A stretch of 64,000 nt of DNA from Escherichia coli. Its GTDB lineage: Bacteria; Pseudomonadota; Gammaproteobacteria; Enterobacterales; Enterobacteriaceae. The stretch lies in NCBI RefSeq assembly GCF_024502345.1, contig NZ_JALDNN010000001.1; one strand, 5' to 3'. Shown here piece after piece: positions 1-16,203 of this stretch. Each line of letters opens with the position of its first letter. Position 1 is the stretch's first letter. A program made the translations under genes and the position numbers. The notes under the pieces were generated by a model. It worked only from the letters and a program-made list of their open reading frames with translations. It was not told the origin of the DNA and made no database searches.

Positions 1-170
1 GTCAGTATTGTGCTGTTCAAATTGATGACGAATGGCTGGAGTGGTTTCTACTTTCAGTGCTGTGTACTAAGCCTGGTATTCCTGACGGTTAGCTGGTTGT
101 TGAGTGGTGAATGGTTAGCAGGAAAGAGTAAGGCTGAACCTTCACGTTCAACCTTACTCTCATTTACACG

Positions 171-3100
171 TTACGCTTTTTTAAAGCGGGCAAAGAGATG
201 TTCCACTACAACGAAAAAGACCGGAACGAAGTAAATTGCCAGCACTGTTGCGGCAAACATCCCGCCCATCACGCCGGTACCTACCGCGTTTTGCGCGCCA
301 GAACCGGCACCATGACTGATAACCAGCGGCAGCACGCCGAGAATAAAGGCCAGAGAGGTCATCAGGATTGGGCGTAAACGCATCCGCGCCGCTTCGATGA
401 TTGCCTCTATCGGCGTTTTCCCTTCTTTCTGCATCATCTCAACGGCAAATTCGACAATCAGGATGGCGTTCTTGGCGGAAAGCCCGATGGTGGTCAGCAA
501 ACCAACCTGGAAGTAGACGTCATTACTTAAGCCGCGCAGATCGGTGGCCAGTAATGCGCCAACGACGCCTAACGGAACAACCAACATCACCGAGAACGGA
601 ATTGACCAGCTCTCATAAAGTGCGGCGAGGGCGAGGAACACCACGACCAGTGAAATCGCATACAGCGCAGGAGCCTGATTTGAGGATAACGCTTCCTGAT
701 ACGACAGTCCGGTCCATGAGTAGCCGACGCCTGCCGGAAGTTTAGCGACCAGGTCTGCCATAAATTTCATGGCGTCACCGGTACTTTTCCCGGCCGCCGC
801 TTCACCTAAAATCTCCATTGACGGGATGCCGTTGTAGCGTTCCAGTCGCGGTGAACCATAGGTCCATTCGGTAGACGAGTAGGCAGAAAGCGGTGCCATC
901 GTGCCAGAGGCGTTGCGTACATACCATTGATTGATGTTATCCGGCAACATACGGAACGGCGTGCCTGCCTGGACATACACTTTTTTCACCCGCCCCTGGT
1001 TGAGGAAGTCGTTCACGTAGCTGCTGCCGAAGGCGGTGGAAATTGTCTGGTTGATATCAGACAGCGCCACACCCATTGCCTCAGCTTTCGCGGCGTTGAC
1101 GTTCACTTTGAACATCGGCGTATCTTCCAGGCCGTTCGGGCGTACCCCGGTGACCTGATTCGGTGATTGCGCTGCCAGTGATAACAGCTCGTTTCGTGCC
1201 TGGGTTAGTTTTTCGTGCCCCAGGTTACCGTTGTCCAGCAGTTCCATATCAAAACCTGACGCGGTACCCAGTTCAGCCACCGCGGGTAAGTTGAACGGGA
1301 AGACGACGGCTTTATTGATACTGCTTAGCGCAATCATTGCCCGCTGAATGATCGCGGTAACCGAGTTTTCCTCACCGACACGTTCAGACCACGGCTTGAG
1401 ACTGATAAACGCCAGGCCGTTGTTTTGCCCCTGGCCGCTGAAGCCAAAGCCGCCAACGGTAAACACCGACTGGACATTATCTTTCTCTTTAGTCAGATAA
1501 TAATCCGTCACCTGTTGCAGCACTTTCGTGGTGTTAACCATGGTGGCACCGGAAGGTAACTGCGCGGTGGTCATAAATACCCCCTGATCCTCTTCTGGTA
1601 AGAAAGAGGTCGGCGTGCGCAGGAACAGCACCGCCATCCCGGCGCAAATCAGCAGGTAGACCACCATGTAGCGACCGGTACAACGCAACAGCGAGCGGGT
1701 GCTATCGGTATAGTGCTGAGTTGATTTTTCAAACAGCGTGTTGAAGCGTGCGAACAGGGCGTTAGGTTTATGACCGCCTTCCGGCGCGGCTTTCAGAATG
1801 GTGGCGCACAGGGCAGGTGTCAGGCTCATTGCCACAAATACTGAAAGCAGCATGGAGGAGATCAGCGTGATGGAGAACTGGCGGTAGATCTCCCCGGTTG
1901 CACCGCTCATAAAGGCCATCGGCATAAACACTGCGGAAAGAACAACGGCAATACCGACCAGCGCACGTTGGATCTGCCCCATCGATTTATGCGTCGCTTC
2001 CTTCGGCGGTAGCTTATCTTCCGCAATGACACGCTCGACGTTCTCCACCACCACGATGGCGTCATCCACCAGTAACCCTATCGCCAGTACCATCCCGAAC
2101 ATAGTCAACGTGTTGATGGTGAAACCGACCGCCGACAAGATCGCAAACGTCCCGAGAATAACCACCGGTACGGCAATCGTCGGGATGATTGTGGCACGGA
2201 AATTCTGCAAAAACAGATACATGACCAGGAAGACGAGGATGATAGCCTCAACCAGTGTTTTGAAAACTTCCTGAATAGAAATTTCGATAAACGGCGTGGT
2301 GTCGTAAGGATAAACCGTCTTCAGACTTGCCGGGAAATAGGCTGATAAGCGGTTCAGTTCCTCTTTGACTGCCCGCGAGGTATCCAGGGCGTTTGCTCCG
2401 GCAGCCAGTTTGATGGCGATCCCGGCAGCAGGTTTGCCGTTATAGCGCGCCACGGTGGAATAATCTTCCGCCCCAAGTTCGACGCGAGCGACATCACGCA
2501 GCAGCACTTGCGAACCATCTTGCTGAACTTTCAACAGGATTTTGCCAAATTCTTCCGGCGTTTGCAGACGCGTCTGCACAATGATCGAGGCGTTTAGCTG
2601 CTGGTCTGCCGCCTGTGGCATGCCACCCAGTTGACCACCGGAAATCTGGTTGTTCTGCACCTTAATCTGGGAAATAACATCGGAAGGTTCCAGGTTATAT
2701 TTATTGAGTTTTTGCGGATCCAGCCAGATCCGCATGGCGTACTCGGAACCAAAGAGCTGTACGCTACCAACGCCCGCGGTACGGCTTAGCGGGTCTTTGA
2801 TATTAGACGCTACATAGTCCGCGATATCGTACTGGTTTAGGCTGCCGTTATCAGAAATAAACGCCGCTACCATCAGGATATTACTGCTCGATTTATCGAC
2901 GCTAATCCCCTGCTGCTGCACTGCTTCAGGTAATGAAGGCATAGCGAGTTGCAGTTTATTTTGCACCTGAACCTGTGCGATATCAGGAGATGTCCCAGTT
3001 TCGAAGGTCAGAGTGATAGAGGCATTACCCGCCGCATCACTGGTTGAAGACATGTACATCAGGCCATCAAGCCCATTCATATTTTGCTCAATCACCTGAG

Positions 3101-3284
3101 TGACCGAGTCTTCTACCGTTTGCGCATCGGCACCCGGATAGGTAGCGCTGACGGTAATGGTCGGTGGCGCAATCTGCGGATACTGCGCAACCGGTAAGTT
3201 CATGATCGCCAGACCACCTGCAAGCATCATAATAATGGCAAGTACCCAGGCAAAAACCGGGCGATCAATAAAATAGTTAGCCAT
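171..3284 (-). CDS. mdtF: RND multidrug efflux pump, inner-membrane transporter (AcrB/MdtF family), 1037 aa
   Basis: Full-length ORF; translation has the RND permease architecture and an N-terminus ([24 protein letters not shown]) matching MdtF/YhiV; sits immediately downstream of a periplasmic adaptor gene. Confidence 0.95.
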
Positions 3285-3308
3285 GAAAGTCCCCTTAAGC
3301 CTGCAACG

Positions 3309-4466
3309 TTATTGTTTCGATTCGGTGCTGGCGTTTTCCTGGCTGGAGGAAATTGCTCGTGCTTTGATACCTGGACGAATGCGTTGCAAACCGGAAACGA
3401 TCACCCGATCGCCAGCCTGCAAGCCAGAGGTGACAACCCACTGGTCGCCGATGGCTTTGCTGGCTTCAATTTCGCGTAGCTGCACGACATCGTCTTTATC
3501 CAGAATGAGCGCCGTTGCTTTACCCTGGGCGTTGTGGGTGACGCCTTCCTGCGGCACCAGTAATACATTCTGGCGGCTACCTTCATCCACTAATGCCGTG
3601 ACATACATGCCAGGCAGCAAGTCACCATTTGGGTTGGGGAAAATCGCCCGTAACGTCACGGAGCCCGTGGTTTCATCAACCGTCGGGTCGGAGAATTTCA
3701 GCGTGCCGGTCTGGCTGTAACGTTTACCATTTTCCAGATTGAGCTGTACTGGCGTACTGCCCTGAACCTGTTTGATTTGCCCACTGGCGACCTCTTCTTT
3801 CATGCGTAAGAAATCTTGCACCGACTGCGTGAGATCGACATAAATCGGGTCCAGACGTTGTACGGTAACCAGCGAATCTGCCTGATTAGCGGTAACGAGT
3901 GCGCCGACGGTCACCGACGATTTCCCGCTGACGCCCGTAATCGGCGAGGTGACATTCGCGTATTGCAGATTGATCGTCGCCTGTTCAACAGCCGCTTTGG
4001 CGACGGTGACATTGGCTTCTGCTTCATTCAACTGGGTGCGCGCGGTGTCGTAATCCTGACGGCTAACGTAGTTGGTCTTCAGCAACGATGCCTGGCGGTT
4101 AAAGGTGATGCGGGCATTGCTGGCGGTAGAGAGCGCTTTCGCCAGCGAGCCTTTGGCGGAGTTTAGCTCGGCCTGTAAAGGTGCAGGATCAATCTGATAC
4201 AGCGAATCGCCCTGGTTCACTTTATCGCCTTCGATAAAGTTGCGTTTAATGATAATACCGCCCACCTGGGGACGTATCTCGGCAACTTCATAAGGAACGG
4301 TTCTACCGGGCAATTCGCTCAACACATTGACCGACCCAGGGGAGAGTGTGACGACACCGACCTCAGGCGTCATGGCGGCGGTGTTTTCCGCCGATTTGTC
4401 ATCGCAGGCGGTGAGCATCGCGCCGCAGAATAACAACGGTATTAACAGCTTTCTTCTTCTGTTCAT
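3309..4466 (-). CDS. mdtE: RND efflux periplasmic adaptor (membrane fusion) lipoprotein, 385 aa
   Basis: ORF with lipoprotein signal peptide and lipobox (LTAC); HlyD/AcrA-like sequence; 24 bp upstream of mdtF on the same strand. Confidence 0.95.
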   Translation of the reverse strand: MNRRRKLLIPLLFCGAMLTACDDKSAENTAAMTPEVGVVTLSPGSVNVLSELPGRTVPYEVAEIRPQVGGIIIKRNFIEGDKVNQGDSLYQIDPAPLQAELNSAKGSLAKALSTASNARITFNRQASLLKTNYVSRQDYDTARTQLNEAEANVTVAKAAVEQATINLQYANVTSPITGVSGKSSVTVGALVTANQADSLVTVQRLDPIYVDLTQSVQDFLRMKEEVASGQIKQVQGSTPVQLNLENGKRYSQTGTLKFSDPTVDETTGSVTLRAIFPNPNGDLLPGMYVTALVDEGSRQNVLLVPQEGVTHNAQGKATALILDKDDVVQLREIEASKAIGDQWVVTSGLQAGDRVIVSGLQRIRPGIKARAISSSQENASTESKQ

Positions 4467-4804
4467 TTTATTCCCTGAAAATTCTTGAGAAATAACGGTT
4501 CTTTAAATTGCGCGCGAGGAGAGATATGAGGGATTTACAGACCAGCGGCATAGTGGGGTTGTCAGCCAGTAAGGTGGGATACAGGCATAGTGATCGACAT
4601 GGTGAGGTCAACGACAAAAAAAATGTTGCCGTTCTGCCAACAGTTCCTGCCAGCATTCGGGCAACGAAGGGTTCGACTGGTGGATACACATACCAGGGGA
4701 ATAAAGTCGTTTTAGCCTCTCCTTTAGTAATCACCGGGGGTAATGAAATCAGCATCTGCATCCCTCGTCATGCCAGCCATCAATTTCAGTTGCTTATGTC
4801 CTGA

Positions 4805-5332
4805 CTAAAAATAAGATGTGATACCCAGGGTGACGATGTCGCTCATACGTCTTAGTTTCAGCTTGTACATAATGTTGAATTTCTGAATCTTTAATGTTTG
4901 TTGCGAAATATTAAGCGTCGACGTGATATTGCTTTCATTTTTATTTTTCAGAATCAATTGCATAATTTTGAACTGATTATGTGAAAAACATAATTGTGAA
5001 TTCTTATGGGGCAAGTGTTTACCATAAGTAATCTCAAGAAGATTTTTGATACTTTCTTTGCGGCTAACAAAATAAATAGGCGCTTTAGCTTTTAGTTTAC
5101 TGATGTGATAAGGTGCCAAAACAATAATTCTCTCGGCATCTAATTTCTCCAGAAATTTAATCGCTTCTTCATCAAGGATATGATTGTGATAGGTATCAAT
5201 GATAACCTTGAAGGGTTTATTGCCTACTTTTTTGATCTCTGACAGGGAATTGATTTTTATCATTTCGTGATTATCTTTCAACTGCCAAAAGCCCTGTAAA
5301 AGAAAAGAATCTTTCGTCATGAGAAAAATCAT
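4805..5332 (-). CDS. gadE: LuxR-family acid-resistance transcriptional activator GadE, 175 aa
   Basis: ORF 4805..5410 trimmed to the internal ATG giving MIFLMTKDSFLLQGFW..., the GadE N-terminus; C-terminal LuxR-type HTH; AT-rich gene. Confidence 0.9.
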   Translation of the reverse strand: MIFLMTKDSFLLQGFWQLKDNHEMIKINSLSEIKKVGNKPFKVIIDTYHNHILDEEAIKFLEKLDAERIIVLAPYHISKLKAKAPIYFVSRKESIKNLLEITYGKHLPHKNSQLCFSHNQFKIMQLILKNKNESNITSTLNISQQTLKIQKFNIMYKLKLRRMSDIVTLGITSYF

Positions 5333-6080
5333 AACTTGCTCCTTAGCCGTTATCGTTTCGAACATGTCATCCTTTTCATTATTTACATCCTTGTCCGAAT
5401 CGTTGTTCAATATAGTAAACGCCTATAAGAACTTTGCCCTTCGTGAACTAATACGTCTATTAACACTAATCAATACTTCAGATTTATCCATCACGCACTC
5501 CATATATTGATCCTAAGTAAGATCCCTGGTTGTTATCAGCTTGTAAATAGTAAACAAAAAGTTAACGTTTGCGGATTACTGCCCAAGAATAAGTTATCAA
5601 TAACCAGTTTGTGATCTCTGAAGAATATTACTAAAGTTAAAATGTAATCCGATTTAAATATCGAGTCTCCTTGTTTCGACTTAAGCTGGCAATTGGATTG
5701 CCAGCTTTCTTTTAACGCATTGAAATTACCTGAGTAAATAACGCATTCATGTCTTCAGGTTTTTATATAGCGTCTGGAGACATGGATATTTATGCAATGT
5801 AATCAACGCCAGTTGCAAAAAAATGAACCCGGATTACTTATTTAACCGCCCATAGCATCAACGCTTACGGAACTCTTTGTTCACTTTCCCACAGCACTTT
5901 TAAAACATTAAACCTGACTACGGAAAATATCAGCCATGATAATGTTTGAAATGGCTAATTTGCCATGGAGTGAAAAAAATTAGATGAAATTCAGTAGGTT
6001 GAAATAATCACTAGCAGGTAATTATTTCAATGATAGTGCGCAATTGATCTACAACACTGCGTAGCGGAGAGAGTATTAAT
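5333..6080 (-). promoter_or_regulatory. Long AT-rich gadE upstream regulatory region (multiple promoters expected; an antisense sRNA arrS is reported in this leader)
   Basis: About 750 bp non-coding AT-rich sequence upstream of gadE; knowledge of the gadE sensory-integration region; individual promoters not mapped here. Confidence 0.5.
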
Positions 6081-6113
6081 CGGATCATAGTCACATCAAG
6101 TGACTATGATCCG
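6081..6113 (-). terminator. Perfect 14-bp stem / 5-nt loop hairpin just downstream of hdeD (candidate hdeD terminator or binding site)
   Basis: cggatcatagtcac-atcaa-gtgactatgatccg read directly from the sequence; lies 18 bp past the hdeD stop codon. Confidence 0.5.
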
Positions 6114-6130
6114 GGTGACAACCGGGATAA

Positions 6131-6703
6131 TTATTGCTGCTTAACGAACAAACTGGCGAAGCTGAACAGGCTGGCGGCGCTAAATATCAGTTCAATTCCC
6201 ACCAGTGTGGAAACCAGCGTTACAGACACCATCGGCGTTGCACCAAGGAATATCCAGGCAATGACGATATCCAGCACACCAATAACGAGCTGTAGCCAGC
6301 TGCCTTTCATTGAACGCTGACGATACCAACTCATCAGGCGAATAACCCCTGCAACACAGAACAAACCGGCAATAAATGCCGCAATGGCAAAAATGCCCAG
6401 CTCCGGTGCGCGGATGAAGAAATAGCCGATCAATAAATAGGCGACTGCGACGAGGAAACCGGATAATACCGGCCAGAAATTATGACTGCGGTTGCTGAAT
6501 AATCCAACAATAAGCGCAATGCCCGAACAGATTAATAATGCACCTACTACTGTGCTTAAAATATCGCCAGAAACGAACGGGAAACTGATACACAGCAACC
6601 CGACGATAAACAGCAGCACGGCAATAAACTGGATTGCTCTGCGATGCTTTTTCAGCATCTCCAGATCAAACTTCAAAATTGTTGCCTTATCTATATATAA
6701 CAT
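6131..6703 (-). CDS. hdeD: Acid-resistance inner membrane protein HdeD, 190 aa
   Basis: ORF translation MLYIDKATILKFDLEMLKKHRRAIQF... with multiple TM segments; divergent from hdeAB. Confidence 0.93.
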   Translation of the reverse strand: MLYIDKATILKFDLEMLKKHRRAIQFIAVLLFIVGLLCISFPFVSGDILSTVVGALLICSGIALIVGLFSNRSHNFWPVLSGFLVAVAYLLIGYFFIRAPELGIFAIAAFIAGLFCVAGVIRLMSWYRQRSMKGSWLQLVIGVLDIVIAWIFLGATPMVSVTLVSTLVGIELIFSAASLFSFASLFVKQQ

Positions 6704-6957
6704 AGAACCACCCTATAAAATTAAGAAGAAAATCCCCTGCTATCAATCTATGCCAAAAACGCGTCTAAGAATGCAGTCGATTTAATAAAAATTTCCTAAT
6801 TGCAGTATCTGATGCATCTGTAACTCATTGTATTGAAATAAAAATATCTGATTTTGATATTTTCCATCAACATGACATATACAGAAAACCAGGTTATAAC
6901 CTCAGTGTCGAAATTGATTCGTGACGGCTCTTTCACTTTATAGTTGAGGATATTACG

Positions 6958-7290
6958 ATGAAAAAAGTATTAGGCGTTATTCTTGGTGGTCTGCTTCTTC
7001 TGCCAGTTGTGAGCAATGCAGCGGATGCGCAAAAAGCAGCTGATAACAAAAAACCGGTCAACTCCTGGACCTGTGAAGATTTCCTGGCTGTGGACGAATC
7101 CTTCCAGCCAACTGCAGTTGGTTTTGCTGAAGCGCTGAACAACAAAGATAAACCAGAAGATGCGGTTTTAGATGTTCAGGGTATTGCAACCGTAACCCCA
7201 GCTATCGTTCAGGCTTGTACTCAGGATAAACAAGCCAACTTTAAAGATAAAGTTAAAGGCGAATGGGACAAAATTAAGAAAGATATGTAA
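6958..7290 (+). CDS. hdeA: Periplasmic acid-stress chaperone HdeA, 110 aa
   Basis: ORF with signal peptide and sequence MKKVLGVILGGLLLLPVVSNAADAQKAADNKKPVNSWTCEDFL... matching HdeA. Confidence 0.96.
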   Translation: MKKVLGVILGGLLLLPVVSNAADAQKAADNKKPVNSWTCEDFLAVDESFQPTAVGFAEALNNKDKPEDAVLDVQGIATVTPAIVQACTQDKQANFKDKVKGEWDKIKKDM

Positions 7291-7405
7291 TTCCGGGAAT
7301 GCGTTACATCGTACTTCCTTGCATATTGAACAGGCCGGAATATCTTCTTTAAAAGCAGCTATTCCTCCTGTTCATATATAATCTCTATATTGAATGGGTT
7401 ACAAA

Positions 7406-7732
7406 ATGAATATTTCATCTCTCCGTAAAGCGTTTATTTTTATGGGCGCTGTAGCGGCTTTGTCACTGGTGAACGCACAATCTGCGCTGGCAGCCAATGA
7501 ATCCGCTAAAGATATGACCTGCCAGGAATTTATTGATCTGAATCCAAAAGCAATGACCCCGGTTGCATGGTGGATGCTGCATGAAGAAACAGTATATAAA
7601 GGTGGCGATACAGTTACTTTAAATGAAACCGATCTCACTCAAATTCCTAAAGTGATCGAATACTGTAAGAAAAACCCGCAGAAAAATTTGTATACCTTCA
7701 AAAATCAAGCATCTAATGACTTGCCGAATTAA
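7406..7732 (+). CDS. hdeB: Periplasmic acid-stress chaperone HdeB, 108 aa
   Basis: ORF 7394..7732 trimmed to ATG at 7406 (MNISSLRKAFIFMGAVAALS...); immediately downstream of hdeA. Confidence 0.93.
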   Translation: MNISSLRKAFIFMGAVAALSLVNAQSALAANESAKDMTCQEFIDLNPKAMTPVAWWMLHEETVYKGGDTVTLNETDLTQIPKVIEYCKKNPQKNLYTFKNQASNDLPN

Positions 7733-7749
7733 TGAGGTACAAGTAAAAA

Positions 7750-7785
7750 GGAGTAGCAAGTTGAGCCATCTTGCTGCTCCTTTTT
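7750..7785 (+). terminator. Candidate intrinsic terminator after hdeB
   Basis: Imperfect 11-bp stem (ggagtagcaag / cttgctgctcc) followed by a T-run directly after the hdeB stop. Confidence 0.5.
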
Positions 7786-7795
7786 GCATTTTTAT

Positions 7796-8443
7796 ATGAC
7801 AGCAGAATTTATTATACGTCTTATACTCGCGGCAATTGCCTGTGGCGCTATTGGCATGGAAAGGCAAATGCGCGGCAAAGGAGCAGGGTTACGCACACAT
7901 GTATTAATTGGCATGGGAAGCGCCCTGTTTATGATTGTTTCGAAATATGGTTTTGCTGACGTGCTGTCTTTAGATCACGTCGGACTGGACCCCAGCCGTA
8001 TTGCTGCTCAGGTGGTGACGGGCGTCGGGTTTATCGGTGCAGGTAACATTCTCGTTCGTAACCAAAATATTGTAGGTTTGACGACGGCAGCGGATATCTG
8101 GGTGACCGCCGCCATAGGTATGGTTATTGGCAGTGGTATGTACGAACTGGGTATTTATGGTTCAGTGATGACCTTGCTGGTGCTGGAAGTCTTCCATCAA
8201 TTAACCTTCCGCCTGATGAACAAAAATTACCATTTACAGCTGACATTAGTGAACGGTAATACGGTATCAATGCTCGACTGGTTTAAGCAGCAAAAAATAA
8301 AAACTGATTTAGTTTCGTTGCAGGAAAATGAAGATCATGAAGTGGTCGCCATTGATATCCAGCTTCATGCCACAACGTCGATAGAAGATCTGTTGCGATT
8401 ATTAAAAGGTATGGCAGGGGTGAAAGGCGTTTCAATTAGCTAA
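7796..8443 (+). CDS. yhiD: MgtC-family inner membrane protein YhiD, 215 aa
   Basis: ORF 7784..8443 trimmed to ATG at 7796 (MTAEFIIRLILAAIACGAIGMERQ...), MgtC/SapB-like. Confidence 0.9.
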   Translation: MTAEFIIRLILAAIACGAIGMERQMRGKGAGLRTHVLIGMGSALFMIVSKYGFADVLSLDHVGLDPSRIAAQVVTGVGFIGAGNILVRNQNIVGLTTAADIWVTAAIGMVIGSGMYELGIYGSVMTLLVLEVFHQLTFRLMNKNYHLQLTLVNGNTVSMLDWFKQQKIKTDLVSLQENEDHEVVAIDIQLHATTSIEDLLRLLKGMAGVKGVSIS

Positions 8444-8484
8444 TCTGTGTGGCAGCGTAGCCAGACTCACCGTAAGCCTGAAAT

Positions 8485-9015
8485 TCACACCAGATAATCA
8501 ATATGCTGATGGCGTACCAGCTCATTGATCCGCTTAAGATTGAGGATCATCATGATATTGTGTTTATGGCAGTAGAACGTTTTTAGCGATATTTTCAGTT
8601 TCTCCAGAATATCTTCCGTTGTCATTTGATTCGCAATGCAGCTCAGAACCTGATGTTGCTTGCGCGAAAGTGACACAGCCGCTTCAGGCACAGAGCAGTA
8701 ACTGCCATTGATGAGTGCGACAAAATCAATGATAGTGATAGTCCGCGGAACAAAGGTCACCGGCACTTTCCCCAGGCAGCGTTTAATATTAAAGGGGGAG
8801 AAAATAATCACATGGACAGGTTTTAATCGTTCAATTTGAGTGAGAAAATTAGAATGAAATACATTATTCATTAATGTATCAATAATGACGAAGGCATTCT
8901 GATGCAACATTACGTCGATCTCTTCTTCGTTCTGTATATGAACGACATTACCTTTACTCAGAATGTTTTTCATCGCGGTGAAGAACATCGTATCCCTGGT
9001 AATTATAAGAAACAT
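8485..9015 (-). CDS. dctR: LuxR-family regulator DctR (YhiF), 176 aa
   Basis: ORF translation MFLIITRDTMFFTAMKNILSKGNVVHIQNEEEIDV... with C-terminal HTH; downstream of slp on the same strand. Confidence 0.92.
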   Translation of the reverse strand: MFLIITRDTMFFTAMKNILSKGNVVHIQNEEEIDVMLHQNAFVIIDTLMNNVFHSNFLTQIERLKPVHVIIFSPFNIKRCLGKVPVTFVPRTITIIDFVALINGSYCSVPEAAVSLSRKQHQVLSCIANQMTTEDILEKLKISLKTFYCHKHNIMMILNLKRINELVRHQHIDYLV

Positions 9016-9170
9016 AACCGACTCCTGGTGCGGACATTAACTTTATAATCAGTTTGCCAAAGGTAATTAACAGGACAGGGCTTATAATAATAATAGTTAG
9101 CTTACTGTATATTAATTTTATGTAATACATGATGCAGATGCTGAGAAAGCATCTGCATCTTTCGGTGGTG

Positions 9171-9737
9171 TTATTTGACCAGCTCAGGTGTTACCTGACT
9201 CACCGCATTGGTGTAGTAAGGCGCACCCCAGCCCGGTTCCGGCCAGAATGCACCATAGCCGTAATCCCACAGGTTATAGGTGGTATTAACCACTTCTCTC
9301 AAATGCCACACCTGGATGCCCTGCATATTCACTTCCAGGAAGTTATACGGGACTTTATTGATAAAGCCTGGTTGTTCACCCTGAATGGTACCGAGGATGG
9401 TAACAAAGTGATTACGATAGTTCACTGGATCAAGGAAGCCGCTTTGTCTGGCGAGCAGTCGGCCCTGATAGTTGGCTTCAATATCAGGCTTCGCATAGCT
9501 ATCCAACGGTAATACAGCGATTTCTAACAACGTATCCGTTTTGCCATTGATAACGTTGATAACCTTCCCACCAAAGCGCGCTTGTTGACCAACATATAAC
9601 CCCGGCTGGTTATGAACAGCAACAAAACTTTTTTGAATATCAGGTTGGTTATTGCCTTTGATATTTTGCGGAATTGAACTACATGCGGCAAGCAAAAATG
9701 AAAGGCTGAGGATGAGTGCACCTTTTGTCATGTTCAT
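9171..9737 (-). CDS. slp: Starvation-inducible outer membrane lipoprotein Slp, 188 aa
   Basis: ORF 9171..9902 trimmed to the internal ATG giving MNMTKGALILSLSFLLAACSS (lipoprotein signal peptide with lipobox). Confidence 0.92.
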   Translation of the reverse strand: MNMTKGALILSLSFLLAACSSIPQNIKGNNQPDIQKSFVAVHNQPGLYVGQQARFGGKVINVINGKTDTLLEIAVLPLDSYAKPDIEANYQGRLLARQSGFLDPVNYRNHFVTILGTIQGEQPGFINKVPYNFLEVNMQGIQVWHLREVVNTTYNLWDYGYGAFWPEPGWGAPYYTNAVSQVTPELVK

Positions 9738-9983
9738 GTTACTATCCTTATCAACAAATATTAAAACCATAATAGATATTTCTTTATAGTTTTCATCTGA
9801 TTCTGAGGTGATATGCCTGATAGTAACGTAAACCTGTCTGATGTTTATATCCCTTCTGTTTAGTTCAATTCCGTTATTTTGGGGCGTGGTATGAGTATCC
9901 ATCGCCCAATAATATAACCCTTTGTTTTAAAATTACATAAAATCTATTTTTATTCAATGATTATAAAGTGCTAATAATCAATA

Positions 9984-11207
9984 TTATGGTATTATATTCT
10001 GATAATGATTTGATAAGCGAATTCTTTTGCCAGATGGTATTTCTATTTCCACCCCATAATTTATATCTTTTTCATTAGGCAGATCTCTCTTTAAATAAAA
10101 GGGGTATGAAATCTTTTCGGGTTGAAGTGTCTCGTAATGAAATGCTATGAATTCATTTTTAGACATTGTTGCCCATTTTTGAATTTTATTGTATAGAGAG
10201 GGTGTTGTAAACTCTTGAAGTTGTTTATAACATATTTTTTTGAACTCTTGCTTATATTTTAATATGTCATCAAATGAAAGATTCACTACCTTTGCCTCTA
10301 AGAAATCAATTATTCTCGAAGCAATTTCCGCTTTCGCGCGTAAAGAGTTGTCATTAATAGTTAACAATGTAGAAAACAAGCCATTGATTTGTTTGTCAAG
10401 ATGCTGTTCATATTTATGTAGTTTGGGGATGGGATTTTCCTTGTGTGAAAAAATAGTGTTAAATAAATTTGCGTCAGTGAAATTTATATTAAGTAGATCT
10501 TCAAAATAAAAATTTGATAAGGTTAGGACTAGCCTGGACATATCTTGCCCTGTCATGTTGAAATCAATAAAGTCGCATCCAGCAAGGGCTTCCATCCTAT
10601 TTTCATTTTCACTGTGCTCAATATACAGCTTCGCCATTTTTAAGTACAAGCTTTGAATGTCTCTTATATCAGTTGGTAAGTCAGCTCGTTGCCCAGCAAA
10701 ATTTTTATTATCGGAAGAAACGGTTTGGACACTGAATCTTTCGGGTATTCCTTCTTCTACGAGAATTTTAGTTATGATTGGATTGTTGGGTTCTGGATTA
10801 ACGACAACAATGATTTGACATACAGAATCCTTATCCTTTTCGTATCTAATGTTATGAATCTGATTAAGTATTGATTGTGTCTGTTGCGTAAGTGGTGTCG
10901 AACTTATCGTTTCAATGTTATTAATAAGACTTACAAGTTGAACCACAACTTTTGAGTAGTCTGCATTTGTATATGTGGTGTTCGTGTGGCATGCATTAAT
11001 TTGTTGGAGTTGTTGTTGCGCTAAATCAAATTGTTCAGGGTTGTATCCTTCTCCAGAGAATGTGGAATTAATGGGTTGTTGTTCTTCCCAATTATCACAA
11101 GGCCACTTCGGTGTGTCTGGCGTTTTAACATTATCGGTATTTGTTGTGCAGTTATAAATATCGCCGTGATATGTATTTATTATACCTGGGGTAAAGTCAA
11201 TTGACAT
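9984..11207 (-). CDS. yhiS: Uncharacterised AT-rich protein YhiS, apparently intact (407 aa)
   Basis: Uninterrupted 407-codon ORF in a strongly AT-rich segment between slp and arsC; N-terminus [20 protein letters not shown]...; assignment by position and recollection of YhiS. Confidence 0.75.
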
Positions 11208-11685
11208 AACATTCCTTATTCATCATCTGTTTTATGCTAAGGTTTTTAAATTGGATAATTAGAACAGGAATGGATTTTCTTCTACACACAATAAATATAA
11301 TGCGTTATATCTTCCTGATATAATTACCTTTAAATTCCCTTTCATTTCCACCCGGTAATATTTGTGTATAAAAAAAAGGGCAGTGATAGTATCGTAAAGG
11401 AAAACGTTAACAACTATCAAAAAGCGCTCATTTTAAAAAGTTATTATGTTCTCTGATAGTGTGTGAAATGATATTTTTGTGATGTTTTAGGTGTGTAATA
11501 ATAAAATGGGTTAAGGTATCTTATAATTATTTAATAATTTGTTGTGTAAATCACTGATAAATCATAATCCAGTACGTCTTTAAACTACTGCACTGTATCG
11601 CTGATAACTAAGCAGCTCACTGATACACCATGCTGGACGCGATAATTGGAATCTCACGCAGGGAGTACTGTGTAAATAGCAAAAT

Positions 11686-11787
11686 CGCCTGATGCGCTAC
11701 GCCTGTCAGACCTACAAATAACATACAATTCATCGAATTTTCATAACATTGTAGGTCGGATAAGACGCGCCAGCGTCGCATCCGACA
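11686..11787. repeat. REP/BIME-type extragenic palindromic elements (two REP units in opposite orientation)
   Basis: gcctgatgcgctacgcctgtcagacctaca and tgtaggtcggataagacgcgccagcgtcgcatccgac resemble the E. coli REP consensus. Confidence 0.7.
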
Positions 11788-11835
11788 TAAATAAAGCGCA
11801 CTTTTCTAACAACCTGTGGGGGGGATATAGCCGCT

Positions 11836-12261
11836 TTATTTCAGGCGCTTACCCGCTTCATCAACCACTTTCTCGCCATCTTCCTTGGTGAATGCGCCTT
11901 TTTGCGCATCTGGCAGAATTTCCAGCACCACTTCTGAAGGGCGGCACAGGCGAGTTCCCAGCGTCGTCACCACAATCGGGCGATTAATCAGAATCGGGTG
12001 CTGAAGCATAAAGTCGATTAACCGATCGTCAGTAAATTTATCTTCCGCAAGGCCCAGCTCCTCATACGGTTCGACGTTTTTACGCAGCAGCGCGCGTACG
12101 GAAATCCCCATATCGGCAATGAGTTTGACCAGTTCATCGCGCGTTGGCGGAGTTTCCAGATAATGGATAATGGTCGGTTCTGTGCCGCTGTTGCGGATCA
12201 TCTCCAGCGTATTACGCGACGTGCCGCAGGCCGGGTTGTGATAAATGGTAATGTTGCTCAT
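11836..12261 (-). CDS. arsC: Arsenate reductase ArsC, 141 aa
   Basis: ORF translation MSNITIYHNPACGTSRNTLEMIRNSG... (Spx/ArsC family, catalytic Cys in NPACGTS). Confidence 0.96.
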   Translation of the reverse strand: MSNITIYHNPACGTSRNTLEMIRNSGTEPTIIHYLETPPTRDELVKLIADMGISVRALLRKNVEPYEELGLAEDKFTDDRLIDFMLQHPILINRPIVVTTLGTRLCRPSEVVLEILPDAQKGAFTKEDGEKVVDEAGKRLK

Positions 12262-12273
12262 ATCAGTATCTCA

Positions 12274-13563
12274 TTACAAAGTGAAAGAGAGACGTAGCGC
12301 CAGCGCAGCCAGCGTCACAAACAGCACAGGCAGGGTCATGATAATCCCTGTACGGAAGTAATATCCCCAGCTGATAGTCATATTCTTCTGCGAAAGTACG
12401 TGCAGCCAGAGCAGCGTTGCCAGGCTACCAATCGGGGTGATTTTCGGCCCCAAATCGCAGCCAATCACGTTGGCATAAACCATCGCTTCTTTGATAACGC
12501 CAGATGCCGTGCTGCCATCAATGGACAACGCGCCAACCAGTACCGTCGGCATATTGTTCATAATAGAAGAGAGGAAGGCGGTGAGGAATCCGGTGCCGAG
12601 CGTCGCGGCCCACAGGCCGTTATCCGCCAGCACGTTGAGTACGCCAGAAAGATATTCCGTTAATCCGGCATTGCGCAGGCCATAAACCACCAGATACATG
12701 CCGAGCGAGAAGATGACAATCTGCCAGGGTGCACCGCGCAGGACTTTACCCGTATTAATCGCATGACCGCGTTTAGCGACGACAAACAAAATCAGCGCGC
12801 CCACAGCTGCAATGGCGCTCACCGGAATGCCGAGCGGTTCCAGGACGAAAAATCCCACCAACAGAAGCAGTAAAACAACCCAGCCAGTTTTGAACGTAGC
12901 AGGATCTTTAATCGCTTCTGCGGGAGATTTCAGCAGCGCCTTGTCGTAGTTCTGCGGAATATCTTTGCGGAAATAGAGATGCAGCATCACCAGCGTGGCA
13001 ACAATTGCGGCGATATCCACCGGCACCATCACCGAGGCATATTCGCGAAAGCCGAGGCCAAAGAAATCTGCGGAAACGATATTCACCAGGTTGGAGACAA
13101 TAAGCGGCAGGCTGGCGGTATCGGCAATGAATCCGGCCGCCATTACGAACGCAAGCGTCGTGCCTTTACTGAATCCTAAAGCCAGCAGCATGGCGATGAC
13201 TATCGGCGTCAAAATAAGCGCCGCGCCATCATTGGCAAACAGGGCCGCAACGGCGGCACCGAGCAGGACAATCCAGGTAAACAGCAAGCGACCGCGTCCA
13301 TTGCCCCAGCGTGAAACGTGCAGCGCTGCCCATTCAAAAAAGCCGGACTCATCCAGCAGCAGGCTGATGATAATAACGGCAATAAACGCAGCCGTCGCGT
13401 TCCAGACGATATTCCACACCACCGGAATATCACCCGGATGTACCACGCCCGTAACTAACGCCAGTACTGCGCCGAGCGTTGCACTCCAGCCGATGCCTAA
13501 ACCTTTCGGCTGCCAGATAACCAATACAATGGTCAGGACAAAGATAGCACCTGCCAGTAACAT
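12274..13563 (-). CDS. arsB: Arsenite/antimonite efflux permease ArsB, 429 aa
   Basis: Full-length polytopic membrane ORF directly upstream of arsC; ArsB-like sequence. Confidence 0.96.
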
Positions 13564-13616
13564 AATGCCTCCCGGAAAAACACATATGCAAATCCATATG
13601 TGTTTAGATAAATTTT

Positions 13617-13970
13617 TTAACTACAAGTGTTCTTACTGTCTACGGAACAATTTTGTCTGGCCAGGTTGCGGACAATCACCTGAACCTTTTCCTGTTCGCA
13701 TCGCCAGGCCTGCTCAATTATTTTCGCGGCCCATGATGGAATATGCGGTGATAAGCGGTAATGAACCCACTTACCCTGCTTGCGATCCAGCAACAAACCG
13801 CTTTCACGAAGAAGCGCCAGATGGCGGGAGATCTTGGGCTGCGACTGGTCGAGAGCAGTGCAGAGATCACAGACGCATAACTCTCCCAGCTCGCTGAGCA
13901 GTAAAACGATGCCCAGACGGGTTTCATCGGCAAGAATTTTGAACAGTTGGATGGGTAACAGAAATGACAT
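13617..13970 (-). CDS. arsR: ArsR/SmtB-family arsenic-responsive repressor ArsR, 117 aa
   Basis: ORF translation [37 protein letters not shown]... (metal-binding ELCVCDL motif, winged HTH). Confidence 0.95.
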
Positions 13971-14119
13971 ATTGCGCTCCTGATTGTTGCAGGTAGTGTC
14001 TCTCTTCGAAGCGGATAAGTCAAAAACATATATGGTTTAACGAATGTGTATGTGCAGAGGAAGGTAATAGGTGTGAATTAAGCGTTGGCTATTCATTTGA
14101 AAGGAGGTCTGAATCAGGA

Positions 14120-14205
14120 CGTAAAAAAACCGACTTTGCGTCGGTTTTTTACTTTCCAGCCCAGAGTTGGTGGCTCTGGCTGGAGTGAGAATGCCCACAT
14201 CTAAC
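14120..14205 (-). ncRNA. agrB: agrB-like small antisense RNA (repeat copy nearest arsR)
   Basis: Block shared with the dinQ leader (ctggctggagtgagaatgcc...) on the opposite strand to dinQ; putative -35 ttgcaa / -10 tagtat on the minus strand; hairpin plus U-run at 14123..14150. Ends approximate; agrA/agrB naming from recollection of K-12 order. Confidence 0.55.
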
Positions 14206-14351
14206 GGTTCAATACTATTAGCCAGTGGCTAACATTGCAAGCGTTAGCGATTTCTTCAGCTGGAGAAGGGACAGTTTGCTATACATGTTGGTGAAAGAGG
14301 ATTTATATACTTTCATCGGGTCGCTGCCGTACCAGGCTTTGTCCGAATCCG

Positions 14352-14442
14352 GATGTAAAAAAACCGACTTCGCGTCGGTTTTTTTACTGTTCAGCCCTGA
14401 GTTGGTGGCTCTGGCTGGAGTGAGAATGCCATCATCTAACGC
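14352..14442 (-). ncRNA. agrA: agrA-like small antisense RNA (repeat copy nearest dinQ)
   Basis: Second copy of the same repeat with its own putative -35 ttgcaa / -10 tagcat and terminator hairpin at 14355..14385; ends approximate. Confidence 0.55.
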
Positions 14443-14502
14443 ATCAATGCTAATACCATACTGAAACTATTGCAAGGACATGCTGGTTTTATAACCTGAA
14501 TA

Positions 14503-14522
14503 TACTGTATGATTATCCAGTT
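14503..14522 (+). promoter_or_regulatory. LexA operator (SOS box) in the dinQ promoter
   Basis: tactgtatgattatccagtt contains CTGT-N8-CCAG, one mismatch from the CTGT-N8-ACAG consensus, upstream of the dinQ peptide ORF. Confidence 0.8.
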
Positions 14523-14713
14523 AGCTCTGAGGCATTTTCACTCTGGTAATGCGCATAAACGCTTTCAAAGTCCTGGTCAGAAGTACGGGTGGTGCCGTTA
14601 ACTGATGCTCTGGCCGGAGTGAGAATGCCATTATCTAACAATAGGGCATGCACCGTGACAGGCAGTGGATGAGTAAGCGGATGCATTCTCACTCCATCGC
14701 ATGGAGAAAACGG

Positions 14714-14797
14714 GTGATTGATAAAGCAATCATCGTTCTTGGAGCGTTAATTGCGCTGTTGGAACTGATCCGCTTTCTGCTTCAGCTTCTGAACTGA
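14714..14797 (+). CDS. dinQ: DinQ small hydrophobic toxic peptide (27 aa, GTG start), type I toxin
   Basis: gtg att gat aaa gca atc atc gtt ctt gga gcg tta att gcg ctg ttg gaa ctg atc cgc ttt ctg ctt cag ctt ctg aac tga translates to VIDKAIIVLGALIALLELIRFLLQLLN; downstream of the LexA box; leader contains the sequence complementary to agrA/agrB. Confidence 0.8.
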   Translation: MIDKAIIVLGALIALLELIRFLLQLLN

Positions 14798-14850
14798 TAG
14801 CGGAAACGTAATTAAGGGCTAAGAGCACACTACTCTTAGCCCTTTAACAT

Positions 14851-16203
14851 TTAACGCATGGTCACGAACTCTTCTGCCGCCGTTGGGTGAATGGCGACGG
14901 TATTGTCGAAGTCTTTTTTGGTTGCCCCCATCTTCAGCGCCACCGCGAAGCCCTGCAACATTTCGTCCATACTAAAACCAATGCCGTGAATACCGACAAT
15001 CTTCTCTTCCGGCCCAACGCACACCAGCTTCATGCGGCACGGCTGGCGGTGAGTGGTGACGGCGGTATACATCGCGGTGAAAGAGGATTTATACACTTTC
15101 ACCTGATCGTCGCCGTACTGCTCGCGCGCCTGCGGTTCCGTTAAACCAACAGTACCAATCGGCGGATGGCTGAAGACCACGGTCGGAATGTTGCTGTAAT
15201 CCAGATGCTCATCCGGCTTGTTATTAAACAGGCGTTCAGAGAGACGGCGACCCGCTGCAACTGCTACCGGTGTCAGTTCTACTGCACCCGTGTTATCACC
15301 CACCGCGTAAATACCTTCAACGTTGGTGTTTTGATATTTATCGACGACGATATAGCCTTTTTCGTTAGTTTTAACGCCAGCGGCTTCCAGGTTGATGTTG
15401 TCATTGGCAGGCTCGCGACCAATCGCCCAAATCAGGCAATCCACCGTTTCACTGCGACCATCTTCCAGCTCCAGCGTCAGGCTACCATCGGCATTTTTCA
15501 CTACCGCTTTCGGGATGGCGTTGGTGTGCAACTGCGGGCCTTCGGCGTTCATCACTTCGACCAGCGTTTCAGAGATCATCGGGTCGAAGCTGCGCAGCGG
15601 CGCATGTTTACGCACAAACAGATGCGTTTTCGCGCCGAGGCCGTTAATCACGCCAGCCAGCTCAACGGCGATGTAACCCGCGCCAACAACCGCCACACGC
15701 TCTGGCAAAGCAGGAAGGGCAAAGAAACCATCAGAATCAATACCGTATTCCACGCCCGGAATATCCGGGTGGCTCGGACGACCGCCGGTGGCGATCAGAA
15801 TATGATCGGCTGTGATGGTTTCACCGTTAACTTCCAGCGTTTTGGCATCAACGAAGCGGGCAAAGCCTTTGATTACATCAACGTTATTTTTACCGAGCAC
15901 GTTTTCATAGGAAGTATGAATACGGTCGATATAGGCGGTACGGCTGGCGATCAACGTTTCCCAGTTGAATTTATTGATAGTGGTATCAAAACCATAATCC
16001 GGGCCGTACATATGGATCGCTTCACGGATTTGCGCCGCGTGCCACATCACTTTCTTCGGTACGCAACCGACGTTCACGCAGGTGCCGCCCAGCTCTTTGG
16101 CTTCAATCAGCGCGCATTTCTGGCCGTACATAGCCGCGCGGTTGATGGAGGCGATACCGCCGCTGCCGCCGCCGATGGCGATGTAATCATAGTGTTTAGT
16201 CAT
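14851..16203 (-). CDS. gor: Glutathione reductase, 450 aa
   Basis: ORF translation [51 protein letters not shown]... (FAD/NAD disulfide reductase with CVNVGC redox site). Confidence 0.97.

Follow-up and report, generated by a model that had tools for sequence, protein, structure and literature searches.

Does the low GC content of the acid fitness island of Escherichia coli mark it as acquired DNA kept silent by H-NS, and does it also mark where the island begins and ends? We have addressed this question in a 64-kb window of the E. coli chromosome (the whole stretch of DNA analysed), for which an earlier note had proposed that positions 171–11207 form an AT-rich, horizontally acquired and H-NS-silenced block. 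This is partly confirmed, in that an AT-rich block is real and far from random, but its coordinates differ. Entropic segmentation of the whole window places it at 4779–11753 (with no strand) with a GC content of 0.382, between neighbours of 0.527 (1–4778) and 0.519 (11754–28628), and an independent scan statistic returns 4751–11750 (log-likelihood ratio 239). Core 7-kb chunks have a dinucleotide distance delta* of no more than 46, and the block has one of 83. Within the span proposed earlier, the initial 4.3 kb, containing mdtF and mdtE, is host-typical, and the right edge does not hold at 11207 because the block runs 550 bp further, reaching a REP-like element immediately downstream of arsC. 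This element, a GC-rich palindromic pair recognized by alignment at 11686–11787 (no strand), contains an inverted repeat (11706–11717 and 11749–11760) and coincides with the switch in composition; we describe it as REP-like from our own reading of the letters. The window also contains a second AT-rich block, absent from the earlier note, at 28629–32766 (GC 0.355).

The genes of the region are readily assigned from E. coli annotation, and all lie on the minus strand except hdeA, hdeB and yhiD. The RND efflux permease gene mdtF (171–3284, GC 0.531) and the RND adaptor gene mdtE (3309–4466, GC 0.541) are island members, identified as open reading frames with near-identical E. coli annotations, and are GC-typical (together, 171–4466, GC 0.534 and GC3 0.615). 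The spacer between mdtE and gadE contains an ES205 small RNA at 4616–4687 on the minus strand (Rfam RF02754; 101 bits, with a gathering score of 86), which is probably GadF, the small RNA from the gadE 3' UTR; a gadEF operon and GadF have been named (bioRxiv 10.1101/2024.06.20.599902). The LuxR-type master activator gene gadE (4805–5332, with a Pfam GerE domain) has the lowest GC content of any canonical island gene (GC 0.326, GC2 0.230), and is preceded by a 798 bp regulatory region (5333–6130, no strand, GC 0.362, delimited by composition); a '750 bp sensory integration region' is attributed to gadE in a passage of PMC4918353 that cites earlier work. The acid-resistance membrane protein gene hdeD (6131–6703, GC 0.462) is separated by a divergent promoter region (6704–6957, no strand, GC 0.331, also defined by composition and within a stretch of at least 70% AT at 6660–6981) from the periplasmic acid chaperone genes hdeA (6958–7290, plus strand, GC 0.429) and hdeB (7406–7732, plus strand, GC 0.401), which are followed by yhiD (7796–8443, plus strand, MgtC/SapB family, GC 0.452). 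The LuxR-type regulator gene dctR (yhiF; 8485–9015, GC 0.397, Pfam GerE) and the outer-membrane lipoprotein gene slp (9171–9737, GC 0.459) complete the canonical island at its right-hand end. To the right of slp lie yhiS with its AT-rich spacers (9738–11835, minus strand, yhiS itself at 9984–11207), the GC-typical arsC, arsB and arsR (11836–13970, GC 0.50–0.54), two antisense AgrB small RNA copies of the dinQ-agrAB locus in the arsR-gor interval (14121–14204 and 14355–14439, minus strand; 107 and 92 bits against Rfam RF02891), and gor (14851–16203), the first conserved core gene across 80 species loci and the right-hand edge of the insertion site described below.

The AT-richness of the eight genes named in the earlier note (gadE, hdeD, hdeA, hdeB, yhiD, dctR, slp and yhiS) is borne out (GC 0.326–0.462, GC3 0.300–0.534) relative to 38 core genes (GC 0.545 +/- 0.033, GC3 0.627; Mann-Whitney p = 5e-8 for GC and 1.5e-5 for GC3), and the genes that it took to be GC-typical (gor, prlC, dtpB, nik and liv) are indeed so. 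The long AT-rich intergenic regions it described are also evident, with 32% of the block being non-coding versus 10.6% elsewhere in the window, and a mean intergenic GC of 0.364 versus 0.435. Codon usage gives a more divided answer. Measured against the pooled core genes, Karlin codon bias is 0.54 for block genes and 0.32 for core genes (p = 3.5e-6), and still 0.517 versus 0.391 (p = 0.005) when matched for length. Codon bias and GC3 do deviate, but the codon adaptation index barely differs (0.294 versus 0.352, p = 0.04; the weights are reportedly those of Sharp and Li, 1987) and hdeA is codon-adapted, with an index of 0.53.

Acquisition was examined using loci anchored on Gor from 80 Enterobacteriaceae species, comprising two Escherichia lineages and 78 others. 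The order uspA-(dtpB)-rsmJ-prlC-rlmJ-gor is kept across these loci, some of which span only part of the block, whereas E. albertii and E69, a divergent Escherichia strain, are alone in having slp and dctR beside gor. Island genes adjoin gor in none of the 78 non-Escherichia loci, 72 of which extend 4.7 kb or more downstream, and arsRBC is not beside gor in E. albertii or in any of the 78 other species. The gene following gor is instead ccp, at a distance of 87 bp, in one Citrobacter locus, and treF, at 185–300 bp, in eight species; treF is within 10 kb of gor in 43 loci. Because several other species have gor next to ccp or treF and none has island genes there, Escherichia carries an insertion between gor and ccp, and the proposal of horizontal acquisition is thus upheld by a site that is free of island genes in 78 non-Escherichia species, with gor within 87–300 bp of ccp or treF in nine. 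A published xenoGI reconstruction agrees with this empty site, and the same study reports a non-syntenic copy of the island in E. fergusonii (PMC5799925). The interval between gor and ccp/treF is an intergenic hotspot with different cargo in different genera.

The insertion is a compositional mosaic. The gadE, hdeD, hdeAB, yhiD, dctR, slp and gadXW genes are AT-rich, while mdtEF, arsRBC and gadA are inserted yet GC-typical; values for the adjoining genes come from a 98.5%-identical genome, in which the GC contents of gadA, gadX and gadW are 0.540, 0.411 and 0.421 respectively. Judged by composition, only about half of the insertion would be recognized, and AT-richness is an unreliable guide to the limits of the island. 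As in tRNA-linked islands such as SPI-2 and LEE, there is a phyletically restricted insertion at a conserved site, with deviant composition, a multi-step mosaic structure and nested later insertions (chu, yhiS and IS elements), but the Escherichia borders differ in having no tRNA, integrase or direct repeats. ARAGORN finds no tRNA genes in the 64-kb window, nor any at the loci of E. albertii and E69, there are no integrase or other mobility open reading frames between gor and mdtF, and searches for flanking direct repeats yield none that are convincing, with only short, chance-level repeats around yhiS.

The locus corresponds closely to the acid fitness island of K-12, defined as extending from slp to gadA (PMC5799925) and attributed, in the passages of PMC5799925 and PMC4918353 that cite them, to Hommais et al. 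2004, Mates et al. 2007 and Tramonti et al. 2008. The order slp-dctR-yhiD-hdeB-hdeA / hdeD / gadE-mdtE-mdtF is the same, with nine intact open reading frames in the window, as is the chromosomal site between gor/ars and ccp/treF, and gadW-gadX-gadA continue just outside the window, as judged from the 98.5%-identical genome; the span 171–11207 hence leaves out gadWXA. The proteins are identical or near-identical to those of K-12, and there is no difference among phylogroups in GadE, Slp or HdeB. No chu haem locus separates dctR from yhiD in this strain, and its yhiS is intact, whereas that of K-12 is disrupted by IS5. An IS5 copy does lie elsewhere in the window, at 26174–27368, unrelated to the island.

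The yhiS gene had been listed with the island, but it falls outside the slp-gadA definition (PMC5799925) and is missing from the E. albertii and E69 loci, even though both have slp and dctR. About 1.75 kb of 9738–11835 is an insert between slp and arsC that is specific to E. coli and Shigella, and all named yhiS homologues are from these two. With a GC content of 0.339 and flanking spacers of 0.289 and 0.349, yhiS appears to be an adjoining, younger AT-rich orphan gene with a later history of its own. Its dN/dS is 0.39, and it occurs as two deeply diverged, recombining allele classes (dS ~0.29).

The canonical genes behave quite differently from newly arrived foreign DNA. Of 5426 complete E. 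coli genomes, 5425 contain a match to the island. Across nine E. coli lineages dN/dS of the canonical genes is 0.00–0.15, a sign of strong purifying selection, with no amino acid changes in GadE or Slp (dN = 0 for gadE). The acquisition is therefore ancient rather than a strain-level event, and the island genes are well integrated in E. coli.

Silencing of AT-rich acquired DNA by H-NS was reportedly described in 2006 by Navarre, by Lucchini and by Oshima (the last is cited in PMC2984483 and PMC3708157), and the block has an H-NS-permissive composition, with 80 TpA steps per kb (versus 38–45), 6.9 A/T tracts per kb (versus 1.9–3.4) and 41% of 100-bp windows at 65% AT or more (versus 0–2%). It shows no clear enrichment, beyond what base composition predicts, for the H-NS 10-mer tCG(t/a)T(a/t)AATT, which Lang et al. 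are said to have described in 2007 as a high-affinity nucleation motif: there are 39 sites with up to two mismatches versus 44.8 +/- 6.7 in composition-matched shuffles, and three sites within one mismatch, at 7527, 8827 and 11727. Direct evidence comes from K-12, where the island is repressed by H-NS and RpoS-dependent, H-NS shifts DNA of the gadE promoter, of gadW and of slp-dctR in gels, and ChIP places it at hdeABD (PMC2984483; further evidence is in PMC3708157). An H-NS/StpA-dependent occupancy domain of ~5 kb covers gadE-hdeD-hdeAB-yhiD in K-12 (bioRxiv 10.1101/2024.06.20.599902), and at hdeAB, H-NS ChIP-qPCR and a 3C hairpin have been reported (bioRxiv 10.64898/2026.02.10.705075). The block shares with xenogeneically silenced DNA its AT-, TpA- and A-tract-richness and long promoter regions, together with published H-NS binding and derepression and the counter-silencers GadE/RcsB, GadX/W, RpoS and ArcA. 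However, the island is ancient, species-wide and strongly constrained by purifying selection, and AT-richness is missing from half of what was inserted. The term domesticated, conditionally silenced stress module (a 'dynamic EPOD') suits the island better than fresh foreign DNA.

Related genes are present elsewhere in the family. Diverged gadE-hdeD-hdeA cassettes with 43–77% amino acid identity to the E. coli proteins are found in Citrobacter amalonaticus, Kluyvera, Yokenella, Kosakonia and Pluralibacter, with GC contents of 0.34–0.43 for GadE-like genes, 0.42–0.47 for hdeA, 0.43–0.49 for hdeD and 0.42–0.50 for AraC regulators, next to decarboxylase and antiporter genes of 0.54–0.58; the pump genes vary (MdtEF-like at 0.48 in C. 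amalonaticus, MdtF-like at 0.64 in Pluralibacter). The cassettes are non-syntenic: the one in C. amalonaticus lies by a P4-like element, and those of Kluyvera have tRNA-Ser or an integrase as a neighbour. Pfam domains and gene order suggest that the decarboxylase loci of Kluyvera, Yokenella, Kosakonia and Pluralibacter are adiA-adiY-adiC arginine-dependent acid resistance loci. They share GadE-like, HdeD, HdeA/B and GadX/W-type AraC proteins with the Escherichia island, an MdtF-like pump in one case, and the same arrangement of AT-rich regulators and chaperones beside GC-typical enzymes, but differ in encoding a 755-residue OKR_DC-family decarboxylase and an amino acid permease instead of GadA, in their 43–71% identity to the E. 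coli proteins, and in their chromosomal sites.

Several explanations of the AT-rich block should be considered. That it is ordinary chromosomal composition noise has next to no probability: single E. coli intergenic regions are often AT-rich (panM-livK has a GC of 0.331), but none of 200 shuffles of 300-bp blocks reaches the log-likelihood ratio of 239 (maximum 75), the block lies at z = -11.9 relative to 136 other 7-kb windows (mean GC 0.535, sd 0.013), and the coding sequence deviates at all three codon positions (GC1/GC2/GC3 of 0.473/0.319/0.413 in block genes versus 0.613/0.411/0.634 in core genes). We also consider it very improbable that this is native DNA whose low GC arose without horizontal transfer, through weak expression, relaxed constraint or a mutational bias confined to this locality. 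The absence of a tRNA, integrase or flanking repeats, the presence of the island in essentially all E. coli, and an adaptation index only slightly below that of core genes would fit such a history, but the gor-ccp/treF site is empty in other genera, the related cassettes occupy non-syntenic sites (with mobile-element, tRNA or integrase neighbours in C. amalonaticus and Kluyvera), and their proteins show ~50% amino acid divergence where Gor is 95% identical in the same genera. Moreover, dN/dS values of at most 0.15 exclude relaxed constraint for the canonical genes, and the boundaries are sharp, with GC-typical mdtEF and ars directly adjoining.

A different type of alternative accepts acquisition but holds that AT-richness is maintained by selection, such that gadE-hdeD-hdeA is a portable cassette with its own H-NS gate and its composition is not mainly a fading donor fingerprint, the low GC also reflecting proteins rich in residues with AT-rich codons. 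We regard this as a possibility, although an unlikely one. The recurrence of the same mosaic in the diverged cassettes of five genera speaks for it, but repeated transfer from AT-rich donors would yield an identical pattern. Polarised polymorphisms in the AT-rich genes of nine E. coli lineages include 32 AT-to-GC and 54 GC-to-AT changes and so reveal no net movement towards GC, with an AT-to-GC share of 0.37 where 0.47 is expected from core per-site rates, but the test falls short of significance (p = 0.067) with 86 informative sites polarised by allele frequency only, and an excess of GC-to-AT polymorphism is usual in all gene classes. The very low GC2 (0.23 in gadE) also speaks for this alternative.

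We therefore favor, with considerable confidence, the interpretation that 4779–11753 comprises yhiS and the AT-rich core of the Escherichia acid fitness island, with its regulatory and chaperone genes, within an ancient, multi-step insertion between gor and ccp/treF. All the DNA from the dinQ and ars genes to gadA lies in this insertion between core genes, a mosaic with AT-rich regulators, small chaperones and long promoter regions, in which the mdtEF pump, the arsenic operon and gadA are host-like. Extrapolating from the K-12 studies, H-NS/StpA filaments and bridges would coat the AT-, TpA- and A-tract-rich DNA and turn the genes off, and acid or stationary-phase signals would act through RpoS, GadE/RcsB, GadX/GadW, EvgA-YdeO or ArcA, which would displace or override H-NS. 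The low GC has persisted without drifting to host composition because it is partly fixed in regulatory DNA and in the proteins, as the low GC1 and GC2 show.

Although real, the finding is an ordinary one, as the GC difference, the acquired status and H-NS silencing in K-12 are already known from published work. The modest addition comes from five other genera, whose diverged gadE-hdeD-hdeA modules likewise have AT-rich regulators beside GC-typical enzymes. A speculative idea, which we consider unlikely, is that of a portable 'gated' cassette of GadE-type, HdeD and HdeA/B proteins, usually with an AraC-type partner, that is plugged into differing acid-defence systems and whose AT-richness is actively maintained. 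If so, the cassette would serve glutamate decarboxylase in Escherichia. Its partner would be a locus of the arginine-decarboxylase type in Kluyvera, Yokenella, Kosakonia and Pluralibacter, while in C. amalonaticus it would be a cluster of pump and urease genes, and AT-richness would provide H-NS-dependent conditional silencing wherever the cassette lands, rather than a decaying signature of the donor.

By gene content, gene order, and site, the cluster at the left of the window belongs to the E. coli acid fitness island. Megablast comparison with 5,426 complete E. coli genomes, together with the RefSeq annotation of the best matches, places mdtF (171-3284), mdtE (3309-4466), gadE (4805-5332), and hdeD (6131-6703) on the minus strand, hdeA (6958-7290), hdeB (7406-7732), and yhiD (7796-8443) on the plus strand, and dctR (8485-9015), slp (9171-9737), an intact 407-residue yhiS (9984-11207), arsC, arsB, and arsR (11836-13970), and gor (14851-16203) again on the minus strand. 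Rfam matches place the ES205 sRNA between gadE and mdtE (4616-4687) and two copies of AgrB at 14121-14439. The left end of the window falls just within the island, with gadW, gadX, and gadA lying directly leftward in related genomes, and the remainder is the usual rlmJ-prlC-rsmJ-dtpB-uspAB-pitA-yhiN ... nik ... fts-rpoH-liv region. We also note that RefSeq genomes annotate a 92-residue 'hypothetical protein' at 4526-4804 (plus strand) between gadE and mdtE, antisense to ES205; it has no Pfam or NCBIfam match and probably represents a spurious annotation.

The earlier note had described an AT-rich island spanning 171-11207, and the anomaly itself is strongly supported, although both ends of that span are wrong. 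A 1-kb GC profile, the check that had been proposed, has two troughs, at about 5-12 kb and 28-33 kb, with the remainder of the window at 0.50-0.61. Recursive entropic segmentation places the first trough at 4779-11753 (GC 0.382), between segments of 0.527 (1-4778) and 0.519 (11754-28628), and an independent single-interval scan statistic chose 4751-11750 with a log-likelihood gain of 239, against a maximum of 75 in 200 shuffles of 300-bp blocks. Relative to 136 other 7-kb windows (mean GC 0.535 +/- 0.013) the block has a z of -11.9. The proposed span opens with 4.3 kb of host-typical DNA, namely mdtF and mdtE (GC 0.534, GC3 0.615), and at the other end the AT-rich DNA continues 550 bp past 11207, reaching a REP-like pair of palindromes immediately downstream of arsC.

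Within the block, the eight genes that had been named as AT-rich are indeed so, with GC contents of 0.326-0.462 compared to 0.545 +/- 0.033 for 38 core genes in the window (p = 5e-8), and the long AT-rich intergenic regions are likewise present; 32% of the block is non-coding versus 10.6% elsewhere, with spacers of 798, 628, 254, and 246 bp at GC 0.29-0.36. GC3 is 0.424 in the named genes and 0.627 in the core (p = 1.5e-5), and GC1 and GC2 are lower too, the pooled values for the three codon positions being 0.473, 0.319, and 0.413 versus 0.613, 0.411, and 0.634. The dinucleotide distance delta* is 83 in the block and at most 46 in core 7-kb chunks. The proposed codon adaptation index comparison (weights after Sharp & Li 1987) gave a marginally lower value (0.294 versus 0.352, p = 0.04), with hdeA well adapted at 0.53, but we give this little weight. 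In its place we used Karlin codon bias measured against the pooled core genes, which is independent of those weights and is 0.54 versus 0.32 (p = 3.5e-6), or 0.517 versus 0.391 among genes of up to 260 codons (p = 0.005). Codon-position regressions (Lawrence & Ochman) imply donor GC contents of 33, 19, and 43%, and as the three positions are mutually inconsistent we claim no donor GC.

Horizontal acquisition, which had also been proposed, is borne out by the state of the locus in other species. Gor is the first conserved gene beside the island, and a Gor-anchored scan with 10-kb flanks lists loci from 80 Enterobacteriaceae species, in which uspA-(dtpB)-rsmJ-prlC-rlmJ-gor is kept save where loci end early; ccp, treF, yhjB, rcdB, yhjD, and yhjE were added to the comparison for the far side. 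Among the loci listed, only two place slp and dctR after gor, that of E. albertii and that of 'E. coli E69', a diverged branch of Escherichia that serves as its own species representative. None of the other 78 has an island gene beside gor, and in 72 of these the sequence extends at least 4.7 kb downstream. In nine species gor abuts ccp or treF: in eight of them treF begins 185-300 bp beyond gor, and in one Citrobacter locus ccp starts 87 bp after gor, followed by treF. Across the listed loci, treF lies within 10 kb of gor in 43. The site being empty in the other genera listed, the DNA from dinQ/agrAB and arsRBC to gadA is an Escherichia insertion between gor and ccp. This agrees with the published xenoGI reconstruction, in which the island dates from after E. 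fergusonii had split off but before E. albertii did; the same study describes a non-syntenic copy in E. fergusonii (PMC5799925), a species not among the loci listed. Unlike classical tRNA-linked islands with their mobility hallmarks, the borders have no tRNA, integrase, or convincing flanking repeat, and only chance-level repeats are seen around yhiS. In other genera as well, the gor-treF junction acts as a hotspot for cargo, with unrelated 10-kb AT-rich inserts downstream of gor in Citrobacter sp. FP75 (GC 0.396) and Buttiauxella massiliensis (GC 0.391), the former including an AraC regulator with 34% identity to GadW.

The insertion is a nested mosaic. The AT-rich parts are gadE to slp (0.33-0.46), gadX (0.411), gadW (0.421), and the spacers (0.286 between ccp and gadA), whereas gadA (0.540), mdtEF (0.534), and arsRBC (0.50-0.54) are host-like, as is the 9-kb chu haem locus (0.502) found between dctR and yhiD in strains carrying it. 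Composition therefore marks only about half of the inserted DNA, with edges internal to the island and not at the insertion borders, which is a caution for composition-based island calling. In the window the yhiD-dctR gap is 41 bp (8444-8484), so the chu/shu locus is absent, although it is present in PapRG-04-4 (98.7% identical, the closest complete genome over 1-20200), E. albertii, and E69; its puzzling distribution has been noted (PMC5799925). The ars/dinQ segment (11836-14850) is highly variable among strains: the window has arsRBC, ST69 has arsRDABC, B2 strains have only arsC, and many strains have an additional permease and ArsR/SmtB pair between yhiS and arsC.

Inclusion of yhiS in the island does not hold, as it has a separate history. 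It is missing in E. albertii and E69, where the arsC or gor side runs directly to the conserved slp promoter, and a search of 5.8 billion proteins returned 135 homologues at 71-99% identity, of which the named ones are all from E. coli or Shigella; yhiS is an orphan, confined by these matches to the two. The intact copies form two deeply diverged and apparently recombining allele classes (dS ~0.29, dN ~0.115, dN/dS ~0.4), and in many strains the gene is frameshifted, truncated, or IS-disrupted. YhiS has no Pfam, NCBIfam, or PADLOC family, residues 203-254 have weak pentapeptide-repeat similarity to PDB 2f3l (E = 0.0055), AlphaFold2 modelling based on 15 alleles gave no usable structure (mean pLDDT 36.4, pTM 0.24), and a literature search on the gene name found nothing on function. 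These odd population genetics are one of only two leads here with some novelty. The regional IS5 of K-12 lies in yhiS, but in the window a complete 1195-bp IS5 (26174-27368; transposase ORF of 338 residues at 26206-27222) sits between yhiN and yhiM, ending in 16-bp inverted repeats and flanked by a target duplication of CTAA.

As to the suggestion of H-NS silencing, the sequence alone makes the block permissive for H-NS and says nothing beyond permissiveness. TpA steps number 80/kb versus 38-45 elsewhere, A/T tracts of at least five bases 6.9/kb versus 1.9-3.4, and 41% of 100-bp windows are at least 65% AT versus 0-2%; the high-affinity H-NS 10-mer is not enriched in the block beyond base composition. 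Direct evidence is published for K-12, and H-NS silencing is therefore the accepted mechanism. About 5 kb spanning hdeAB-yhiD, hdeD, arrS, and gadEF form an extended protein occupancy domain that disappears in an stpA hns double mutant as local regulators take over (bioRxiv 10.1101/2024.06.20.599902), hdeAB has H-NS ChIP-qPCR signal and a 3C hairpin that opens on acid shock (bioRxiv 10.64898/2026.02.10.705075), and ArcA is a published H-NS antagonist at gadE-mdtEF. The literature already describes the island along with its deviant GC, acquired status, and H-NS repression (PMC3708157, PMC2984483, PMC5799925), and this is a textbook H-NS-controlled acquired cluster; the finding as first stated thus matters little. 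The coordinates, the mosaic insertion, and the exclusion of yhiS are corrections, and what is added is the caution on island calling, the clean empty site over the 78 species with loci listed, and the AT-rich regulators and chaperones in diverged cassettes of five other genera described below.

The window contains other compositionally deviant DNA. A second AT-rich block (28629-32766, GC 0.355), which the earlier note did not mention, covers the yhiM (DUF2776) 5' end and promoter, the latter an H-NS target (PMC2984483), yhiJ (557 residues, DUF6860 and DUF4049, GC 0.339), and yhiL (540 residues, DUF4049, GC 0.373), and has no match to defence-system families; yhiL differs from its closest match at 25 non-synonymous and 27 synonymous codons. 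A hicA/hicB toxin-antitoxin pair between yhhJ and nikR (37906-38537, GC 0.42-0.44), with strongly deviant codon usage and an AT-rich spacer (0.303) to nikR, looks like a further small accessory insert. The panM-livK intergenic region (59677-60099, GC 0.331, at least 70% AT over 59736-59983) is as AT-rich as the island spacers, yet is flanked by core genes.

The region is matched in 5425 of the 5426 complete genomes, and in the window and eight diverse lineages (the nine genomes used for diversity and polarisation analyses) dN/dS is 0.00-0.15 for the canonical AT-rich genes, with zero amino-acid changes in GadE and Slp; these substitution patterns indicate functional, conserved genes and not decaying imports. 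Synonymous diversity within E. coli is two- to three-fold lower in the island (4805-9737 with mdtEF, mean dS 0.02-0.07) than in the gor-rlmJ-prlC-rsmJ flank (14851-20122, 0.12-0.18), whereas slp and dctR, the only island genes with outgroup data, have about twice the flank dS between E. coli and E. albertii or E69 (0.6-0.9 versus 0.2-0.64). An HKA-like 2x2 table gives 40 polymorphic and 141 divergent sites against 416 and 348 (p = 1e-15), and separate acquisitions, interspecies allele replacement, or a sweep within E. coli are possible causes. The best identity of the window to any complete E. coli genome is ~98.4-98.7% over 14-25 kb. An artificially mutated sequence is ruled out, as 778 of 914 differences fall at the third position of a codon and the change is synonymous in 801 of 893 altered codons. 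The differences are strongly mosaic (nikB through dcrB are 99.9-100% identical to one reference; nikE, livM, and arsR are at 92-96%, with arsR the most diverged gene against the nearest genomes at 92.4%), which points to a recombinant lineage missing among the complete genomes.

Retention of the AT-rich composition is partly explained by a GC deficit that lies partly at codon positions 1 and 2 (gadE GC2 is 0.23), where it is frozen by purifying selection. At third positions, polymorphisms polarised by frequency among nine lineages show no sign of drift toward host GC, with 32 AT-to-GC and 54 GC-to-AT changes in the AT-rich genes, an AT-to-GC share of 0.37 versus 0.47 expected at core per-site rates (p = 0.067), although this test is underpowered. 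The published xenoGI analysis handles the island as Escherichia-specific (PMC5799925), and diverged cassettes with GadE homologues (43-52% identity) are found in five other genera. Citrobacter amalonaticus has slp, a gadE-like gene, crcB, mdtE-like (63%) and mdtF-like (77%) genes, hdeD, hdeA, and hdeB, adjoining a P4-like satellite element and a urease cluster. Kluyvera (two loci), Yokenella, Kosakonia, and Pluralibacter have a gadE-like gene, hdeA, an AraC regulator, and, except in Kosakonia, a called hdeD, lying between a 755-residue OKR_DC decarboxylase and an amino-acid permease, a locus that by its Pfam domains and gene order looks like adiA-adiY-adiC; in Kluyvera a tRNA-Ser or an integrase lies next to the module.

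Regulators and chaperones are AT-rich in every cassette (0.34-0.50), whereas the decarboxylase and antiporter neighbours are host-like (0.54-0.58) and the MdtF-like pump of Pluralibacter is at 0.64. The persistence of AT-rich regulators and chaperones across these genera fits an AT-rich composition kept by selection, and the same pattern also fits repeated transfer from AT-rich sources. It is a lead with some novelty, and if the composition is selected, then the regulatory architecture, an H-NS gate, would travel with the stress module.
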